A model generated the notes under the pieces. The model saw only the letters and a program-made list of their open reading frames with translations, was not told where the DNA came from and did no database searches. This document shows positions 6,440-39,626 of a DNA stretch of 42,065 bases, one piece after another (position 1 is the stretch's first letter; each line of letters starts with the position of its first letter). Source of the DNA: Escherichia coli (lineage in GTDB: Bacteria > Pseudomonadota > Gammaproteobacteria > Enterobacterales > Enterobacteriaceae); assembly GCF_003334255.1 (NCBI RefSeq), contig NZ_QOWU01000050.1. One strand, written 5' to 3'. The position numbers and the translations under genes were made by a program.

Positions 6440-8722
<2,283 letters not shown>

Positions 8723-17162: not shown

Positions 17163-18836
17163 ATGACTGAATCTTTTGCTCAACTCTTTGAAGAGTCCTT
17201 AAAAGAAATCGAAACCCGCCCGGGTTCTATCGTTCGTGGCGTTGTTGTTGCTATCGACAAAGACGTAGTACTGGTTGACGCTGGTCTGAAATCTGAGTCC
17301 GCCATCCCGGCTGAGCAGTTCAAAAACGCCCAGGGCGAGCTGGAAATCCAGGTAGGTGACGAAGTTGACGTTGCTCTGGACGCAGTAGAAGACGGCTTCG
17401 GTGAAACTCTGCTGTCCCGTGAGAAAGCTAAACGTCACGAAGCCTGGATCACGCTGGAAAAAGCTTACGAAGATGCTGAAACTGTTACCGGTGTTATCAA
17501 CGGCAAAGTTAAGGGCGGCTTCACTGTTGAGCTGAACGGTATTCGTGCGTTCCTGCCAGGTTCTCTGGTAGACGTTCGTCCGGTGCGTGACACTCTGCAC
17601 CTGGAAGGCAAAGAGCTTGAATTTAAAGTAATCAAGCTGGATCAGAAGCGCAACAACGTTGTTGTTTCTCGTCGTGCCGTTATCGAATCCGAAAACAGCG
17701 CAGAGCGCGATCAGCTGCTGGAAAACCTGCAGGAAGGCATGGAAGTTAAAGGTATCGTTAAGAACCTCACTGACTACGGTGCATTCGTTGATCTGGGCGG
17801 CGTTGACGGCCTGCTGCACATCACTGACATGGCCTGGAAACGCGTTAAGCATCCGAGCGAAATCGTCAACGTGGGCGACGAAATCACTGTTAAAGTGCTG
17901 AAGTTCGACCGCGAACGTACCCGTGTATCCCTGGGCCTGAAACAGCTGGGCGAAGATCCGTGGGTAGCTATCGCTAAACGTTATCCGGAAGGTACCAAAC
18001 TGACTGGTCGCGTGACCAACCTGACCGACTACGGCTGCTTCGTTGAAATCGAAGAAGGCGTTGAAGGCCTGGTACACGTTTCCGAAATGGATTGGACCAA
18101 CAAAAACATCCACCCGTCCAAAGTTGTTAACGTTGGCGATGTAGTGGAAGTTATGGTTCTGGATATCGACGAAGAACGTCGTCGTATCTCCCTGGGTCTG
18201 AAACAGTGCAAAGCTAACCCGTGGCAGCAGTTCGCGGAAACCCACAACAAGGGCGACCGTGTTGAAGGTAAAATCAAGTCTATCACTGACTTCGGTATCT
18301 TCATCGGCCTGGACGGCGGCATCGACGGCCTGGTTCACCTGTCTGACATCTCCTGGAACGTTGCAGGCGAAGAAGCAGTTCGTGAATACAAAAAAGGCGA
18401 CGAAATCGCTGCAGTTGTTCTGCAGGTTGACGCAGAACGTGAACGTATCTCCCTGGGCGTTAAACAGCTCGCAGAAGATCCGTTCAACAACTGGGTTGCT
18501 CTGAACAAGAAAGGCGCTATCGTAACCGGTAAAGTAACTGCAGTTGACGCTAAAGGCGCAACCGTAGAACTGGCTGACGGCGTTGAAGGTTACCTGCGTG
18601 CTTCTGAAGCATCCCGTGACCGCGTTGAAGACGCTACCCTGGTTCTGAGCGTTGGCGACGAAGTTGAAGCTAAATTCACCGGCGTTGATCGTAAAAACCG
18701 CGCAATCAGCCTGTCTGTTCGTGCGAAAGACGAAGCTGACGAGAAAGATGCAATCGCAACTGTTAACAAACAGGAAGATGCAAACTTCTCCAACAACGCA
18801 ATGGCTGAAGCTTTCAAAGCAGCTAAAGGCGAGTAA
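17163..18836 (+). CDS. rpsA: 30S ribosomal protein S1
   Basis: 557-aa ORF, six tandem S1 (OB-fold) repeats visible as recurring DYGAFV/DFGIFI...GLLHI/GLVH motifs; strongly biased codon usage. Confidence 0.98.
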
Positions 18837-18844
18837 TTCTCTGA

Positions 18845-18876
18845 CTCTTCGGGATTTTTATTCCGAAGTTTGTTGA
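18845..18876 (+). terminator. intrinsic terminator downstream of rpsA
   Basis: cttcgg ... ccgaag stem followed by tttgttgagttt, 10 nt after the rpsA stop. Confidence 0.55.
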
Positions 18877-18882
18877 GTTTAC

Positions 18883-18911
18883 TTGACAGATTGCAGGTTT
18901 CGTCCTGTAAT
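18883..18911 (+). promoter_or_regulatory. sigma70 promoter for ihfB (-35 TTGACA, 17-bp spacer, -10 TGTAAT)
   Basis: Consensus -35 ttgaca at 18883-18888, exactly 17 bp, then tgtaat at 18906-18911, about 85 bp upstream of the ihfB ATG. Confidence 0.65.
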
Positions 18912-18995
18912 CAAGCACTAAGGGCGGCTACGGCCGCCCTTAATCAATGCAGCAACAGCAGCCGCTTAATTTGCCTTTAAGGAACCGGAGGAATC

Positions 18996-19280
18996 ATGAC
19001 CAAGTCAGAATTGATAGAAAGACTTGCCACCCAGCAATCGCACATTCCCGCCAAGACGGTTGAAGATGCAGTAAAAGAGATGCTGGAGCATATGGCCTCG
19101 ACTCTTGCGCAGGGCGAGCGTATTGAAATCCGCGGTTTCGGCAGTTTCTCTTTGCACTACCGCGCACCACGTACCGGACGTAATCCGAAGACTGGCGATA
19201 AAGTAGAACTGGAAGGAAAATACGTTCCTCACTTTAAACCTGGTAAAGAACTGCGCGATCGCGCCAATATTTACGGTTAA
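18996..19280 (+). CDS. ihfB: integration host factor subunit beta
   Basis: 94-aa ORF ([34 protein letters not shown]...), HU/IHF family; ggagg Shine-Dalgarno. Confidence 0.97.
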
Positions 19281-19306
19281 GTTTTTTACTCAAACTTGAA
19301 CGAGAG

Positions 19307-19330
19307 AAAAGCACCTGTCGGGTGCTTTTT
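19307..19330 (+). terminator. intrinsic terminator downstream of ihfB
   Basis: aagcacc-tgtc-gggtgctt hairpin followed by tttttt. Confidence 0.7.
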
Positions 19331-19487
19331 TCATTTCTCTAATCTGGAACTGGAAGCTGCCTCGCAGAGTTTTGAACAGTTTTCACCCTTTCGTTAAATT
19401 CTTCTGAATATGCCTCGGGGAACGCAAAATTCCCACCAGACAACCGCTCAACAAAGTTGCACACTTTCCATAAACAGGGAGGGGTGC

Positions 19488-21752
19488 ATGAAAATAACGA
19501 CAGTCGGTGTATGCATAATTAGCGGAATTTTTCCGTTGCTGATTTTGCCCCAATTGCCTGGGACATTAACCCTTGCGTTTCTGACTCTCTTCGCCTGCGT
19601 ACTGGCATTTATCCCTGTTAAAACCGTCCGTTATATCGCGCTGACGTTGCTGTTTTTCGTTTGGGGCATATTATCAGCAAAGCAAATTTTGTGGGCAGGA
19701 GAAACCTTAACTGGCGCGACGCAGGATGCAATTGTTGAGATCACTGCAACTGACGGCATGACCACTCATTACGGTCAAATTACTCATCTACAAGGTCGAC
19801 GTATATTCCCTGCGTCAGGTCTCGTGATGTATGGCGAATATCTTCCGCAAGCGGTTTGTGCTGGACAACAATGGTCAATGAAACTCAAAGTTCGTGCAGT
19901 TCATGGCCAACTTAATGATGGCGGCTTTGATAGCCAGCGTTATGCCATTGCCCAGCATCAGCCGCTCACCGGCCGTTTTCTGCAGGCAAGTGTCATTGAA
20001 CCGAATTGTAGCCTGCGTGCACAGTATCTGGCGTCACTACAAACAACGCTGCAACCCTATCCGTGGAATGCGGTTATTCTTGGTTTAGGTATGGGGGAAC
20101 GGTTATCCGTCCCCAAAGAAATCAAAAATATCATGCGCGATACTGGAACGGCGCATTTAATGGCGATATCGGGATTGCACATCGCTTTTGCGGCGTTGCT
20201 GGCTGCCGGACTCATTCGCAGTGGACAAATTTTTCTGCCTGGGCGCTGGATCCACTGGCAAATACCATTAATTGGCGGAATCTGCTGTGCTGCTTTTTAT
20301 GCCTGGTTGACGGGAATGCAACCTCCTGCATTGCGTACCATGGTGGCGCTTGCTACGTGGGGAATGCTTAAGTTAAGTGGGCGACAGTGGAGTGGCTGGG
20401 ATGTATGGATATGTTGTCTGGCGGCAATTTTGCTGATGGATCCTGTTGCCATTCTCTCGCAAAGTTTATGGCTCTCTGCCGCTGCGGTCGCGGCATTGAT
20501 ATTTTGGTATCAGTGGTTTCCCTGTCCTGAGTGGCAACTGCCGCCGGTATTGCGTGCAGTTGTTTCCCTCATCCATCTGCAACTGGGAATCACACTTCTG
20601 CTTATGCCCGTGCAAATCGTCATATTTCATGGCATTAGTCTGACCTCGTTTATTGCAAATCTATTAGCAATTCCCTTGGTGACATTTATCACGGTTCCGT
20701 TGATCCTCGCCGCGATGGTTGTGCATTTAAGCGGGCCGTTAATCCTGGAGCAAGGGTTATGGTTTCTTGCCGACCGGTCTTTGGCTTTACTTTTCTGGGG
20801 GTTAAAGAGTTTGCCGGAAGGGTGGATCAACATTGCTGAATGTTGGCAATGGCTATCATTTTCCCCATGGTTCTTACTGGTGGTATGGCGATTAAACGCC
20901 TGGCGAACGTTGCCAGCAATGTGTGTGGCTGGAGGCTTGCTGATGTGCTGGCCGCTGTGGCAAAAACCTCGACCTGACGAGTGGCAGCTGTACATGCTTG
21001 ATGTCGGGCAAGGGCTGGCAATGGTGATAGCCAGAAACGGCAAAGCGATTCTCTATGACACAGGACTGGCCTGGCCTGAAGGGGATAGTGGGCAACAACT
21101 GATTATCCCCTGGCTCCACTGGCATAATCTTGAACCGGAAGGCGTTATTCTGAGCCATGAACATCTGGATCACCGGGGAGGGCTGGATTCAATATTGCAT
21201 ATATGGCCGATGTTATGGATCAGAAGTCCGTTAAACTGGGAACATCATCAGCCCTGTGTGCGTGGCGAAGCGTGGCAATGGCAAGGATTGCGTTTCAGCG
21301 CGCACTGGCCTTTACAAGGTAGCAACGATAAAGGAAATAACCATTCCTGTGTGGTTAAGGTTGATGACGGGACGAATAGCATTCTTCTAACCGGTGATAT
21401 TGAAGCCCCAGCTGAACAAAAGATGCTAAGCCGTTACTGGCAGCAAGTGCAGGCAACATTGCTTCAGGTACCTCACCATGGCAGTAATACCTCATCATCG
21501 TTGCCATTAATTCAGCGAGTGAATGGAAAAGTGGCACTCGCATCGGCATCGCGCTATAACGCATGGCGACTGCCCTCTAACAAAGTTAAGCATCGCTATC
21601 AACTGCAAGGATATCAATGGATTGATACTCCACATCAAGGTCAAACAACGGTCAATTTTTCAGCGCAAGGCTGGCGGATTAGCAGCCTCAGGGAGCAAAT
21701 TTTACCTCGTTGGTATCATCAGTGGTTTGGCGTGCCAGTGGATAACGGGTAG
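19488..21752 (+). CDS. ycaI: ComEC/Rec2-family inner-membrane DNA-uptake channel homologue
   Basis: 754-aa polytopic membrane protein starting MKITTVGVCIISGIF with a C-terminal metallo-beta-lactamase-like domain (SHEHLDHRGG); gggagggg Shine-Dalgarno. The upstream in-frame ATG at 19410 is rejected. Confidence 0.85.
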   Translation: MKITTVGVCIISGIFPLLILPQLPGTLTLAFLTLFACVLAFIPVKTVRYIALTLLFFVWGILSAKQILWAGETLTGATQDAIVEITATDGMTTHYGQITHLQGRRIFPASGLVMYGEYLPQAVCAGQQWSMKLKVRAVHGQLNDGGFDSQRYAIAQHQPLTGRFLQASVIEPNCSLRAQYLASLQTTLQPYPWNAVILGLGMGERLSVPKEIKNIMRDTGTAHLMAISGLHIAFAALLAAGLIRSGQIFLPGRWIHWQIPLIGGICCAAFYAWLTGMQPPALRTMVALATWGMLKLSGRQWSGWDVWICCLAAILLMDPVAILSQSLWLSAAAVAALIFWYQWFPCPEWQLPPVLRAVVSLIHLQLGITLLLMPVQIVIFHGISLTSFIANLLAIPLVTFITVPLILAAMVVHLSGPLILEQGLWFLADRSLALLFWGLKSLPEGWINIAECWQWLSFSPWFLLVVWRLNAWRTLPAMCVAGGLLMCWPLWQKPRPDEWQLYMLDVGQGLAMVIARNGKAILYDTGLAWPEGDSGQQLIIPWLHWHNLEPEGVILSHEHLDHRGGLDSILHIWPMLWIRSPLNWEHHQPCVRGEAWQWQGLRFSAHWPLQGSNDKGNNHSCVVKVDDGTNSILLTGDIEAPAEQKMLSRYWQQVQATLLQVPHHGSNTSSSLPLIQRVNGKVALASASRYNAWRLPSNKVKHRYQLQGYQWIDTPHQGQTTVNFSAQGWRISSLREQILPRWYHQWFGVPVDNG

Positions 21753-21788
21753 AATATGCGGCTATTTCAACAAATGCTGGTTTTTTGA

Positions 21789-23537
21789 ATGCATAACGAC
21801 AAAGATCTCTCTACGTGGCAGACGTTCCGCCGACTGTGGCCAACCATTGCGCCTTTTAAAGCGGGTCTGATCGTGGCGGGCGTAGCGTTAATCCTCAACG
21901 CAGCCAGCGATACCTTCATGTTATCGCTCCTTAAGCCACTTCTTGATGATGGCTTTGGTAAAACAGATCGCTCCGTGCTGGTGTGGATGCCGCTGGTGGT
22001 GATCGGGCTGATGATTTTACGTGGTATCACCAGCTATGTCTCCAGCTACTGTATCTCCTGGGTATCAGGAAAGGTGGTAATGACCATGCGTCGCCGCCTG
22101 TTTGGTCACATGATGGGAATGCCGGTTTCATTTTTTGACAAACAGTCAACGGGGACGCTGTTGTCACGTATCACCTACGATTCCGAACAGGTTGCTTCTT
22201 CTTCTTCCGGCGCACTGATAACGGTTGTGCGTGAAGGTGCGTCAATCATCGGCCTGTTCATCATGATGTTCTATTACAGTTGGCAACTGTCGATCATTTT
22301 GATTGTGCTGGCACCGATTGTTTCGATTGCGATTCGCGTTGTATCGAAGCGTTTTCGCAACATCAGTAAAAACATGCAGAACACCATGGGACAGGTGACC
22401 ACCAGCGCTGAACAAATGCTGAAAGGCCATAAAGAAGTATTGATTTTCGGTGGTCAGGAAGTGGAAACGAAACGCTTCGATAAAGTCAGCAACCGAATGC
22501 GTCTTCAGGGGATGAAAATGGTTTCAGCCTCTTCCATCTCTGATCCGATCATTCAGCTGATCGCCTCTTTGGCGCTGGCGTTTGTTCTGTATGCGGCGAG
22601 CTTCCCAAGTGTCATGGATAGCCTGACTGCCGGTACGATTACCGTTGTTTTCTCTTCAATGATTGCACTGATGCGTCCGCTGAAATCGCTGACCAACGTT
22701 AACGCCCAGTTCCAGCGCGGTATGGCGGCTTGTCAGACGCTGTTTACCATTCTGGACAGTGAGCAGGAGAAAGACGAAGGTAAGCGCGTGATCGAGCGTG
22801 CGACTGGCGACGTGGAATTCCGCAATGTCACCTTTACTTATCCGGGACGTGACGTACCAGCATTGCGTAACATCAACCTGAAAATTCCGGCAGGGAAGAC
22901 GGTTGCTCTGGTTGGACGCTCTGGTTCGGGTAAATCAACCATCGCCAGCCTGATCACGCGTTTTTACGATATTGATGAAGGCGAAATCCTGATGGATGGT
23001 CACGATCTGCGCGAGTATACACTGGCGTCGTTACGTAACCAGGTTGCTCTGGTGTCGCAGAATGTCCATCTGTTTAACGATACGGTTGCTAACAACATTG
23101 CTTACGCACGGACTGAACAGTACAGCCGTGAGCAAATTGAAGAAGCGGCGCGTATGGCCTACGCCATGGACTTCATCAATAAGATGGATAACGGTCTCGA
23201 TACAGTGATTGGTGAAAACGGCGTGCTGCTCTCTGGCGGTCAGCGTCAGCGTATTGCTATCGCTCGAGCCTTGTTGCGTGATAGCCCGATTCTGATTCTG
23301 GACGAAGCTACCTCGGCTCTGGATACCGAATCCGAACGTGCGATTCAGGCGGCACTGGATGAGTTGCAGAAAAACCGTACCTCTCTGGTGATTGCCCACC
23401 GCTTGTCTACCATTGAAAAGGCAGACGAAATCGTGGTCGTCGAGGATGGTGTCATTGTGGAACGCGGTACGCATAACGATTTGCTTGAGCACCGTGGCGT
23501 TTACGCGCAACTTCACAAAATGCAGTTTGGCCAATGA
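21789..23537 (+). CDS. msbA: lipid A / LPS-core ABC exporter (flippase) MsbA
   Basis: 582-aa ORF with an N-terminal 6-TM domain and a C-terminal ABC ATPase: Walker [10 protein letters not shown], signature LSGGQRQR, Walker B ILILDEAT. Confidence 0.97.
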
Positions 23538-24520
23538 TCGAAAAAATCTGGTCTGGTGAATCCCCTTTGTGGCGGCTATTGCTGCCACTCTCCTGGTTGT
23601 ATGGCCTGGTGAGTGGCGCGATCCGTCTTTGCTATAAACTAAAACTGAAGCGCGCCTGGCGTGCCCCCGTACCGGTTGTCGTGGTTGGTAATCTCACCGC
23701 AGGCGGCAACGGAAAAACCCCGGTCGTTGTCTGGCTGGTGGAACAGTTGCAACAGCGCGGTATTCGCGTGGGGGTCGTATCGCGGGGATATGGTGGTAAG
23801 GCTGAATCTTATCCGCTGTTATTGTCGGCAGATACCACAACAGCACAGGCGGGTGATGAACCTGTGTTGATTTATCAACGCACTGATGCGCCTGTTGCGG
23901 TTTCTCCCGTTCGTTCTGATGCGGTAAAAGCCATTCTGGCGCAACACCCTGATGTGCAGATCATCGTAACCGACGACGGTTTACAGCATTACCGTCTGGC
24001 GCGTGATGTGGAAATTGTCGTTATTGATGGTGTGCGTCGCTTTGGCAATGGCTGGTGGTTGCCGGCGGGGCCAATGCGTGAGCGAGCGGGGCGCTTAAAG
24101 TCGGTTGATGCGGTAATCGTCAACGGCGGTGTCCCCCGCAGCGGTGAAATCCCCATGCATCTGCTGCCGGGTCAGGCGGTGAATTTACGTACCGGTACGC
24201 GTTGTGACGTTGCTCAGCTTGAACATGTGGTGGCGATGGCAGGGATTGGGCATCCGCCGCGCTTTTTTGCCACGCTGAAGATGTGCGGCGTACAACCGGA
24301 AAAATGTGTACCGCTGGCCGATCATCAGTCTTTGAACCATGCGGATGTCAGCGCGTTGGTAAGCACCGGGCAAACGCTGGTAATGACTGAAAAAGATGCG
24401 GTGAAATGCCGGGCCTTTGCAGAAGAAAATTGGTGGTATTTGCCCGTTGACGCACAGCTTTCAGGTGATGAACCAGCGAAACTGCTTGCGCAACTAACCT
24501 CGCTGGCTTCTGGCAACTAG
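23534..24520 (+). CDS. lpxK: tetraacyldisaccharide 4'-kinase
   Basis: 328-aa ORF with P-loop [12 protein letters not shown]; start overlaps the msbA stop (ATGA). Confidence 0.95.
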
Positions 24521-24556
24521 TTACGCCGCGGCAGCGTTCGATTGATGGAGTCATGA

Positions 24557-25789
24557 ATGTCGCTGCCGCACCTCTCCCTTGCTGATGCGCGTAATCTTCA
24601 CCTTGCCGCGCAAGGCCTGTTAAACAAACCCCGCCGTCGAGCGTCGTTGGAGGATATTCCGGCAACGATCTCCCGCATGTCCTTGTTGCAAATCGATACC
24701 ATCAATATTGTTGCCCGTAGTCCATATCTGGTGCTTTTCAGTCGTCTGGGAAATTATCCTGCCCAGTGGCTGGATGAGTCTCTGGCGCGTGGCGAATTAA
24801 TGGAATACTGGGCGCATGAAGCCTGCTTTATGCCGCGTAGCGACTTTCGTCTTATTCGCCACCGCATGCTGGCACCTGAAAAAATGGGCTGGAAATACAA
24901 AGACGCCTGGATGCAGGAACATGAGGCGGAAATTGCACAGTTAATTCAGCATATTCATGATAAGGGGCCGGTACGTTCAGCCGATTTTGAGCATCCTCGT
25001 AAAGGTGCAAGCGGCTGGTGGGAATGGAAGCCGCATAAACGGCATCTGGAAGGTTTATTTACTGCCGGAAAGGTGATGGTGATTGAACGGCGCAACTTCC
25101 AGCGCGTTTATGATTTAACCCACCGTGTCATGCCTGACTGGGATGATGAGCGCGATCTCGTTTCGCAAACAGAAGCAGAAATCATCATGCTGGATAACAG
25201 TGCGCGTAGCCTGGGAATATTCCGCGAACAGTGGCTGGCAGATTACTATCGGCTGAAACGTCCGGCACTGGCGGCGTGGCGCGAAGCGAGGGCTGAACAG
25301 CAGCAAATCATTGCTGTGCATGTTGAAAAATTGGGCAATCTTTGGCTGCATGCTGATTTGCTGCCGCTACTCGAGCGTGCGCTGGCCGGAAAGCTCACTG
25401 CAACGCACAGCGCGGTACTTTCGCCTTTTGATCCTGTTGTCTGGGATCGCAAACGCGCAGAGCAGCTTTTTGATTTTAGCTACCGGCTGGAGTGCTATAC
25501 CCCAGCGCCGAAACGCCAGTATGGCTATTTTGTTCTGCCATTATTACATCGTGGGCAATTAGTTGGGCGAATGGATGCCAAAATGCATCGCCAGACAGGC
25601 ATCCTTGAAGTTATCTCTCTGTGGTTACAGGAAGGTATTAAACCAACGACAACGCTGCAAAAAGGGCTACGTCAGGCGATTACTGATTTCGCTAACTGGC
25701 AGCAGGCAACGCGGGTGACATTAGGATGCTGCCCGCAAGGCCTCTTTACTGATTGCCGCACCGGCTGGGAAATAGACCCCGTCGCGTAA
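24557..25789 (+). CDS. ycaQ: winged-helix DNA glycosylase-family protein YcaQ (reported interstrand-crosslink glycosylase)
   Basis: 410-aa ORF, matches YcaQ by sequence as recalled and by position downstream of lpxK. Confidence 0.85.
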   Translation: MSLPHLSLADARNLHLAAQGLLNKPRRRASLEDIPATISRMSLLQIDTINIVARSPYLVLFSRLGNYPAQWLDESLARGELMEYWAHEACFMPRSDFRLIRHRMLAPEKMGWKYKDAWMQEHEAEIAQLIQHIHDKGPVRSADFEHPRKGASGWWEWKPHKRHLEGLFTAGKVMVIERRNFQRVYDLTHRVMPDWDDERDLVSQTEAEIIMLDNSARSLGIFREQWLADYYRLKRPALAAWREARAEQQQIIAVHVEKLGNLWLHADLLPLLERALAGKLTATHSAVLSPFDPVVWDRKRAEQLFDFSYRLECYTPAPKRQYGYFVLPLLHRGQLVGRMDAKMHRQTGILEVISLWLQEGIKPTTTLQKGLRQAITDFANWQQATRVTLGCCPQGLFTDCRTGWEIDPVA

Positions 25790-39528: not shown

Positions 39529-39626
39529 GCCGGATGCGGCACGAGCGCCTTATCCGGCCTACAAAATCGTGCAAATTCAAAATATTGCAGGGGACGCGTA
39601 GGCCTGATAAGCGTAGCGCATCAGGC
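39529..39626. repeat. BIME: two inverted REP (repetitive extragenic palindromic) units
   Basis: gccggatgcggcacgagcgccttatccggcctac (39529-39562) and inverted copy gtaggcctgataagcgtagcgcatcaggc (39598-39626) match the REP consensus family as I recall it; located between convergent gloC and aspC. Confidence 0.75.

Follow-up and report, generated by a model that had tools for sequence, protein, structure and literature searches.

The current analysis concerns a stretch of 42,065 nucleotides (nt) of Escherichia coli DNA (contig NZ_QOWU01000050.1 of the assembly GCF_003334255.1), referred to below as the window, and in particular its gene ycaI, which encodes a ComEC/Rec2-like membrane protein directly upstream of msbA and lpxK. 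Taken as a whole, the observations make it quite likely that ycaI is an intact ComEC/Rec2 orthologue residing in an ancestral gene order, with msbA served by a promoter of its own that lies within the coding sequence of ycaI. ycaI has long been annotated as a ComEC homologue. What the competence homologues of E. coli serve for is an old question, which does not become newly testable through this locus. An earlier note, made from the window alone, had singled out ycaI; its observation is correct and its interpretation is supported, but the feature was already known and annotated and the experiments it suggested have partly been done. The analysis that followed has yielded, as by-products, the overlap of the msbA promoter with the ycaI stop codon and its deep conservation, a pair of ExbB/ExbD-like genes within the same cluster in other organisms, and a clade-specific change in one catalytic motif.

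The region 19281-21800 is E. coli chromosome. It has a match of 90-100% identity in every complete E. coli genome (5426 of 5426), and 5424 of them cover at least 80% of the query. RefSeq places rpsA, ihfB, ycaI, msbA, lpxK, ycaQ, ycaR and kdsB in this order on a single strand and labels ycaI at identical coordinates as "ComEC family protein". The genes of immediate concern are the following.

19488-21752, plus strand: coding sequence of ycaI (ComEC/Rec2 orthologue), 2265 nt, 754 residues, ATG start and TAG stop
19477-19484, plus strand: strong Shine-Dalgarno sequence GGGAGGGG of ycaI, read from the sequence, with GGAGG invariant across genera in the alignment
21789-23537, plus strand: coding sequence of msbA, lipid A flippase, 582 residues, from the open reading frame (ORF) and RefSeq
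23534-24520, plus strand: coding sequence of lpxK, tetraacyldisaccharide 4'-kinase, 328 residues, from the ORF and RefSeq

The 754-residue ComEC/Rec2-like protein described by the earlier note is borne out by the ORF, Pfam, NCBIfam and RefSeq, and the coordinates agree with its placement of ycaI directly upstream of msbA-lpxK in the same orientation, the end coordinate of 24520 in that note being the end of lpxK. Its distance of 37 bp results when one counts from the final stop-codon base of ycaI up to the A of the msbA ATG; the intergenic gap between ycaI and msbA is 36 nt (21753-21788). The coding sequences of msbA and lpxK overlap by 4 nt (ATGA), such that the start of lpxK lies on the stop of msbA. 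An ORF of 780 residues beginning with the ATG at 19410, present in the mechanical ORF list, has been rejected as ycaI: the extension falls in non-conserved intergenic spacer, and in the strain EC32 a deletion of 1 nt between this ATG and that at 19488 destroys the frame.

YcaI is an orthologue of ComEC/Rec2 by all the sequence and structure criteria of the family. It scores 1129 bits against the curated equivalog model ComEC_Rec2 of NCBIfam (TIGR00361, cut-off 190) and 1309 bits against PRK11539 (cut-off 969), the latter match spanning residues 1-754. A sequence search of PDB has retrieved the full-length Rec2/ComEC entries 9vc9, 9vcb and 9vcf (E-values of 1e-77 to 3.5e-74, residues ~105-747) and the distant ComEC entry 30bt (E-value 1.4e-20). 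The AlphaFold2 (AF2) model of YcaI has a mean predicted local distance difference test (pLDDT) score of 92 and a predicted template modelling (pTM) score of 0.89, and shows three N-terminal helices, a five-stranded β domain, a helical membrane bundle and an α/β C-terminal domain. The domains, the last of which carries a metallo-beta-lactamase (MBL) fold, are as follows.

19488-19709, plus strand: three N-terminal trans-membrane helices, residues 1-74 (AF2 helices at 3-18, 26-40 and 45-74, pLDDT above 90)
19719-20000, plus strand: periplasmic OB-fold domain, residues 78-171, DUF4131 (PF13567), five β strands in the AF2 model
20088-20888, plus strand: Competence (channel) domain PF03772, residues 201-467 (Pfam E-value 4.1e-53), a helical trans-membrane bundle in the AF2 model
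21000-21545, plus strand: MBL-fold nuclease domain PF00753 (Lactamase_B), residues 505-686 (Pfam E-value 3.5e-23)

The Pfam match to DUF4131 is weak (residues 27-157, E-value 5.6e-5), and the OB-fold and channel assignments are drawn from the AF2 layout together with Pfam, set beside the published cryo-EM description of ComEC, in which three trans-membrane helices precede the OB fold (bioRxiv 10.64898/2026.04.23.720307). Judged from the model, YcaI appears to share with the Neomoorella ComEC of that study the same layout of three trans-membrane helices, OB fold, channel and MBL domain. The best PDB match by Foldseek is 9ic4, ComEC's beta-lactamase-like domain on its own (E-value 2.3e-14, TM-score 0.80), ahead of further phosphodiesterases and nucleases with an MBL fold; among the Foldseek matches to PDB the isolated MBL domain is the only representative of ComEC, 9vc9, 9vcb and 9vcf being absent. 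YcaI has the three-domain architecture and the length class of the gammaproteobacterial members of TIGR00361, Rec2 of Haemophilus influenzae and ComEC of Vibrio cholerae, but its identity to the Rec2/ComEC proteins of Pasteurellaceae and Vibrionaceae is just ~30-33%. The ComEC proteins of Bacillus subtilis and Moorella/Neomoorella are distant from YcaI in sequence, and the MBL domain superimposes on 9ic4.

Residue conservation was assessed over 41 relatives that are 26-50% identical to YcaI, a set which is also the basis of the AF2 model. In the channel domain H223, I227-S228-G229, H231 and R283 are invariant, and in the MBL domain D505, D524, H557, D561, H562, D637, H663 and H664 are invariant, columns that take in positions of motifs II, IV and V. 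The metal ligands of motifs I-V are all present in YcaI.

The HEHLDH motif, reported by the earlier note in a C-terminal metallo-beta-lactamase domain, is found at residues 557-562 (nt 21156-21173, plus strand) and corresponds to motif II in the form HxHxDH, which is slightly atypical for ComEC. HxHxDH occurs in all the 118 Enterobacteriaceae-level sequences of the retrieved sets in which the motif was found and in the closest representatives at 50% identity; HxDxDH occurs in 109 of 149 more distant representatives. In terms of taxa HxHxDH is found in most Enterobacterales and Orbaceae, with Rahnella and Edwardsiella as exceptions, and all sampled Pasteurellaceae and Vibrionaceae with the motif found have HxDxDH. 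The residue concerned is H559 of YcaI, at the first of the two motif II aspartate positions, where ComEC of B. subtilis and Moorella has aspartate. Histidine at this position is the canonical MBL ligand, and for this reason nuclease activity of YcaI would be expected. In the ComEC proteins of B. subtilis, Moorella, Neisseria and Vibrio motif II is HxDxDH, and both its aspartates (D573/D575 in B. subtilis) are required for binding of Mn2+, the preferred metal, and for activity (PMC8579336). YcaI may differ in metal preference from the characterised ComEC proteins, to judge from the motif.

The second element of the locus is the promoter of msbA, referred to as msbAp.

21727-21755, plus strand: msbAp, TTGGCG-17-TAGAAT, beginning in the last 26 nt of ycaI, from the consensus scan

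The -35 hexamer TTGGCG (21727-21732) is followed by a spacer of 17 nt and the -10 hexamer TAGAAT (21750-21755), of which the first three bases are the TAG stop codon of ycaI (21750-21752). It is the sole sigma-70-like match on the plus strand in the consensus scan of 18800-24700. The block is almost invariant in nucleotides from E. coli to Yersinia, Proteus and Photorhabdus, where the proteins are just ~40% identical, and a related G(G)TA(G/C)AAT is found on or beside the comEC stop in loci of Vibrio, Aliivibrio, Shewanella, Pasteurellaceae and the Idiomarina group (junctions of comEC and msbA compared in the loci L005-L050 and L084). Where E. coli and 14 other Enterobacterales have the same residue, they also share the codon in a fraction of 0.69-0.78 of cases over the last 19 codons of ycaI, the gene mean being 0.37 (standard deviation 0.10). 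This sharing of codons, about twice as high as in the rest of the gene, reflects selection on the DNA sequence itself.

The 57-codon design of Ostrov et al. (2016) reportedly removed seven codons. Within the last 150 nt of ycaI, the design would by that codon list alter AGC, AGC, AGG, TTA and the TAG stop at 21750. In the 57-codon genome project, the promoters defined by Cappable-seq that overlap recoded codons included an intragenic, growth-essential msbAp; the recoded msbAp gave less transcript and the region was unable to replace the parental copy, synonymous recoding having damaged the promoter (PMC13287592). TTGGCG-17-TAGAAT is consistent with the published msbAp, and the exact transcription start site is a prediction from the sequence. 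In a derivative of BL21, simple replacement failed for a single UAG, the TAG of ycaI. The promoter of ribF-ispH inside yaaY is comparable in that an essential promoter lies within the upstream coding sequence, the host of msbAp being the non-essential ycaI, and the lowering of promoter output and the block of region replacement upon recoding of the upstream gene are as for intragenic essential promoters. msbAp differs from the ribF-ispH type in that its -10 hexamer includes the upstream stop codon, and in that a related -10 sequence stands at the comEC/msbA junction in several gammaproteobacterial orders. A description of the overlap of the -10 hexamer with the stop codon, and of its deep conservation, was not found in the literature searched.

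We conclude that msbA-lpxK-ycaQ has its own essential promoter inside ycaI, and that the essential msbA and lpxK for this reason do not rely on transcription of ycaI. The genes ycaI-msbA-lpxK-ycaQ are on the same strand with gaps of 36, -4 and 36 nt, and the terminator scan revealed no terminator-like site between ycaI and msbA nor at the junctions within msbA-lpxK-ycaQ. The equal size of the lpxK-ycaQ gap (24521-24556) and the ycaI-msbA gap is probably a coincidence. Of an independent promoter and a terminator, which the earlier note had named together as what would separate the two genes, the promoter is present and the terminator is the part that the scan does not provide. Read-through from ycaI into msbA is possible because no terminator intervenes, and this would account for ycaI-msbA-lpxK-ycaQ being listed as an operon in databases and papers (PMC10328246, PMC3001078). 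One could go further and take the four genes as one obligatory transcription unit in which msbA depends on the promoter of ycaI, on the strength of the shared strand, the 36-nt gap, the absence of terminator-like sites from the scan and the published operon descriptions. We regard this as extremely unlikely in view of the growth-essential intragenic msbAp and the "msbA-ycaQ operon" named in the same study (PMC13287592), the conservation of the promoter sequence, and the viable strains that carry a prophage, IS1 or an antibiotic cassette in ycaI, although read-through from the cassette or the prophage is possible in those strains.

The conserved gene order around ycaI is the third line of evidence. 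An alignment of diverse relatives was used to scan one genome per species, giving 80 loci, in which the neighbours known from E. coli were located by tblastn. Downstream of comEC and in its orientation, msbA, lpxK and kdsB are found in every locus of Enterobacterales in which enough sequence is available, except in Gilliamella, where lpxK comes directly after comEC. The same order is found in Haemophilus, Rodentibacter and Aggregatibacter of Pasteurellaceae, in Vibrio and Aliivibrio of Vibrionaceae, and in Colwellia, Shewanella, Aliidiomarina and Pseudidiomarina of Alteromonadales. The order can be written as comEC-msbA-lpxK-(ycaQ)-kdsB. NCBIfam gave no family for YcaQ, which is named crosslink-repair DNA glycosylase in RefSeq. 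Between the stop of comEC and the start of msbA, Enterobacterales have 34-41 nt, Orbaceae standing apart with 126 nt; the corresponding distances are 30-44 nt for Vibrionaceae and 48-61 nt for Pasteurellaceae. In most betaproteobacterial loci msbA and lpxK were not located nearby by tblastn.

The position of ycaI next to msbA-lpxK is therefore ancestral gammaproteobacterial synteny. Rec2/ComEC is the DNA-uptake channel in Pasteurellaceae and Vibrionaceae, families that include the classical naturally transformable Gram-negative models, and the rec2/comEC genes of Haemophilus, Rodentibacter, Aggregatibacter, Vibrio and Aliivibrio stand in the same order as in E. coli. Since the adjacency is common to these naturally competent families, it is not a puzzle peculiar to a non-transformable E. 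coli. We infer that an essential promoter buried in the coding sequence of comEC is sufficient to explain why comEC and msbA have not become separated. This offers a plain explanation for a dispensable and fast-evolving DNA-uptake gene staying beside essential lipid A genes across several gammaproteobacterial orders.

In Methylophaga, Kangiella, Methylotenera and several uncultured Gamma- and Betaproteobacteria, a pair of genes encoding ExbB/TolQ-like and ExbD/TolR-like proteins is packed between comEC and msbA.

Locus L057, 7927-9035: exbB/exbD-like pair
Locus L041, 4103-5362: exbB/exbD-like pair
Loci L060, L064, L066, L069 and L079: further exbB/exbD-like pairs

In L057 the exbB-like gene starts right against the stop of comEC; the exbD-like gene overlaps its two neighbours, the exbB-like gene and msbA. 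The presence of a proton-motive-force motor pair beside a DNA-import channel is suggestive.

Selection on the coding sequence has been estimated as the ratio of nonsynonymous to synonymous substitution rates (dN/dS) by the method of Nei and Gojobori, for the window against E. coli EC32 and for E. coli against E. albertii; the comparison is limited to these pairs because dS is saturated against Citrobacter and beyond.

ycaI: dN/dS of 0.173 within E. coli (against EC32) and 0.078 against E. albertii
msbA: 0.019 and 0.015
lpxK: 0.070 and 0.048
ycaQ: 0.135 and 0.078

The values for ycaI resemble those of its neighbour ycaQ, and within ycaI the MBL domain has a dN/dS of 0.07 and the channel domain 0.146 in the E. 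coli pair. YcaI is 61-63% identical to its counterparts in Klebsiella, and an ORF of exactly 754 codons is kept from E. coli to Klebsiella and Kosakonia (60-72% identity). ycaI is clearly under purifying selection and yet dispensable. Laboratory insertions of antibiotic cassettes in ycaI and deletions of the gene are viable, with no phenotype noted in growth studies. Among the complete genomes, E. coli 90-3040 has a prophage inside the middle of ycaI (locus L002, 4205-5428 and downstream) and E. coli HS30-1 has IS1A near its 5' end (locus L003, 1630-2572); since these strains are viable, ycaI can receive insertions while msbA stays functional. Following the break of ycaI in L002, genes for a DNA cytosine methyltransferase and a Com-family regulator come next. 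A major lineage with a frameshifted ycaI had been suspected from the protein clusters P0041 (1934 members) and P0044 (514 members), and was rejected when these proved to be mixtures of assorted partial and truncated sequences.

The region upstream of ycaI contains one clear element and two candidate elements.

19304-19332, plus strand: intrinsic terminator of ihfB, a stem of 13 pairs followed by a T run, with the core GCACCTG...GGGTGCTTTTTT kept across Enterobacteriaceae
19437-19465, plus strand: candidate weak sigma-70 promoter of ycaI, CAGACA-17-CACACT, from the cross-genus alignment
19348-19369 (motif 19351-19366), plus strand: candidate CRP-S-like site TGGAA-N6-TCGCA, the best CRP-like match in the spacer

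The terminator is predicted to insulate ycaI from rpsA-ihfB transcription, and the terminators of ihfB have been found effective in Salmonella (PMC8942017). As ihfB ends in a strong terminator, ycaI needs a promoter of its own within the 155 nt before its start. The consensus sigma-70 scan gave no promoter of ycaI above threshold in the ihfB-ycaI spacer. The spacer is otherwise divergent, and the CAGACA and CACACT hexamers, together with the distance between them, belong to the few blocks that are conserved in it. They are placed just 5' of the ribosome-binding site; they may represent a weak promoter, and expression at a low level is probable. At the same relative position as the candidate CRP-S-like site, one half-site of the TCGCA or TGCGA type is found in several genera of the alignment. 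Cameron & Redfield predicted CRP-S sites for Enterobacteriaceae genes orthologous to the competence genes of H. influenzae, rec2 included (PMC1635313). Control of ycaI by Sxy and CRP is plausible on these grounds, and the site, whose pattern occurs at chance level, has been dropped from evidence for Sxy control to a weak lead.

Based on the characterised members of the family, YcaI would be an inner-membrane protein whose OB fold and MBL-fold nuclease face the periplasm. By homology the OB fold is expected to hold periplasmic double-stranded DNA, of which one strand would be degraded by the nuclease and the other threaded via the channel domain into the cytoplasm. ycaI is probably expressed at a low level, from a weak promoter of its own that lies downstream of the ihfB terminator. 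msbA is driven by the promoter at the end of ycaI, within its last 26 nt, and ycaI transcripts can continue into msbA. Nuclease activity has been demonstrated for the ComEC proteins of Moorella and B. subtilis (PMC8579336) and for full-length Neomoorella ComEC (bioRxiv 10.64898/2026.04.23.720307), and the same studies establish a role in transformation for the C-terminal domains of ComEC in organisms other than E. coli. By analogy, YcaI would be capable of DNA import and of nuclease activity in E. coli. With its gene intact, part of the core genome and under purifying selection, ycaI is considered a working gene and not a relic. Finkel & Kolter (2001) and Palchevskiy & Finkel (2006) reportedly found that E. 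coli needs homologues of competence genes both to live on DNA as a nutrient and to remain fit in stationary phase.

A number of observations weigh against such a function. No DNA-import phenotype of ycaI was found in the literature accessible, and in contrast to Rec2 of H. influenzae and ComEC of V. cholerae, YcaI has no demonstrated role in transformation of E. coli. Motif II is HxHxDH and not the HxDxDH of the biochemically characterised ComEC proteins, and owing to this difference the catalytic and metal properties of YcaI are extrapolated. ycaI has a higher dN than any other local gene, about seven-fold that of msbA, and the protein clusters contain many different alleles with truncations or internal deletions. 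With 2 mismatches allowed, the CRP-S pattern occurs 27 times in the window, no more often than by chance (30 expected). A nonsense mutant of ycaI in DH5alpha has lower chemical and ultrasound transformation and changes in some permeability read-outs (PMC12844161); this is artificial competence, which need not use the DNA-uptake pathway. On the physiological role of YcaI in E. coli, which it had called poorly defined, the earlier note is likewise supported.

The high dN and the many independent truncated or internally deleted alleles, when seen together with the prophage and IS1 insertions in natural isolates, the viable deletions devoid of an obvious phenotype and the extra nucleotide-level constraint at the 3' end, could also suggest that ycaI is the decaying remnant of a lost competence system in which only the last few dozen nt, that is the msbA promoter, matter. 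There is only a small chance of this being correct. The dN/dS of 0.08-0.17 for the whole gene and 0.07 for the nuclease domain is far from neutrality, the length is held at exactly 754 codons over the divergence up to Klebsiella and Kosakonia, the catalytic ligands are all invariant, and the coverage of at least 80% of the locus in all but two of the complete genomes is difficult to reconcile with decay.

A different possibility is that YcaI is kept for a function in the envelope, or in lipid A and lipopolysaccharide (LPS) handling, and not for DNA import, and is clustered with msbA, lpxK and kdsB for that reason. The conservation of the cluster comEC-(exbB/exbD-like)-msbA-lpxK-kdsB over very large distances would fit such a role, and so would the altered artificial transformation and permeability of the nonsense mutant. 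ycaI is also dispensable for the natural transformation of E. coli with plasmids, which is thought to use a double-stranded DNA route, and the HxHxDH motif specific to Enterobacterales could be the sign of another substrate or metal. The envelope phenotypes of that mutant, on the other hand, have been reported without a stated mechanism, and deletion of ycaI has no noticeable growth phenotype. The synteny is equally present in Pasteurellaceae and Vibrionaceae, where Rec2/ComEC is the channel of DNA uptake, the channel, OB-fold and nuclease residues are all still conserved, and the msbA promoter within comEC is the simpler account of the synteny. An envelope function is, in our judgement, very unlikely. 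It is likewise improbable, and is mentioned here as a speculation, that the cluster comEC-(exbB/exbD-like)-msbA-lpxK-kdsB in Gammaproteobacteria and some Betaproteobacteria reflects a real functional or regulatory coupling between DNA import and lipid A export that goes beyond the embedded promoter, or that YcaI, with its HxHxDH motif, has an envelope role in E. coli. As an example of such coupling, transcription or translation reaching the comEC stop inside the msbA -10 hexamer could modulate msbA when the competence genes are induced.

The reading of ycaI as an intact ComEC/Rec2 orthologue that hosts the promoter of its neighbours has a practical consequence. Knockout, recoding and CRISPRi designs for ycaI must spare its last ~60-80 nt, which contain the promoter of the essential msbA-lpxK.

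A few other observations have been made in the window. The Rfam scan of the window assigned no family at the ycaI locus, and its sole match above the gathering score is the small RNA ES036 (CssrF) at 39563-39605 on the plus strand (53 bits, E-value 3e-8). A long antisense ORF of 379 residues at 17199-18338 on the minus strand lies opposite rpsA, and a long shadow ORF of 750 residues at 6449-8701 on the plus strand lies opposite an ORF of 760 residues at 6440-8722; both are most likely not genes.

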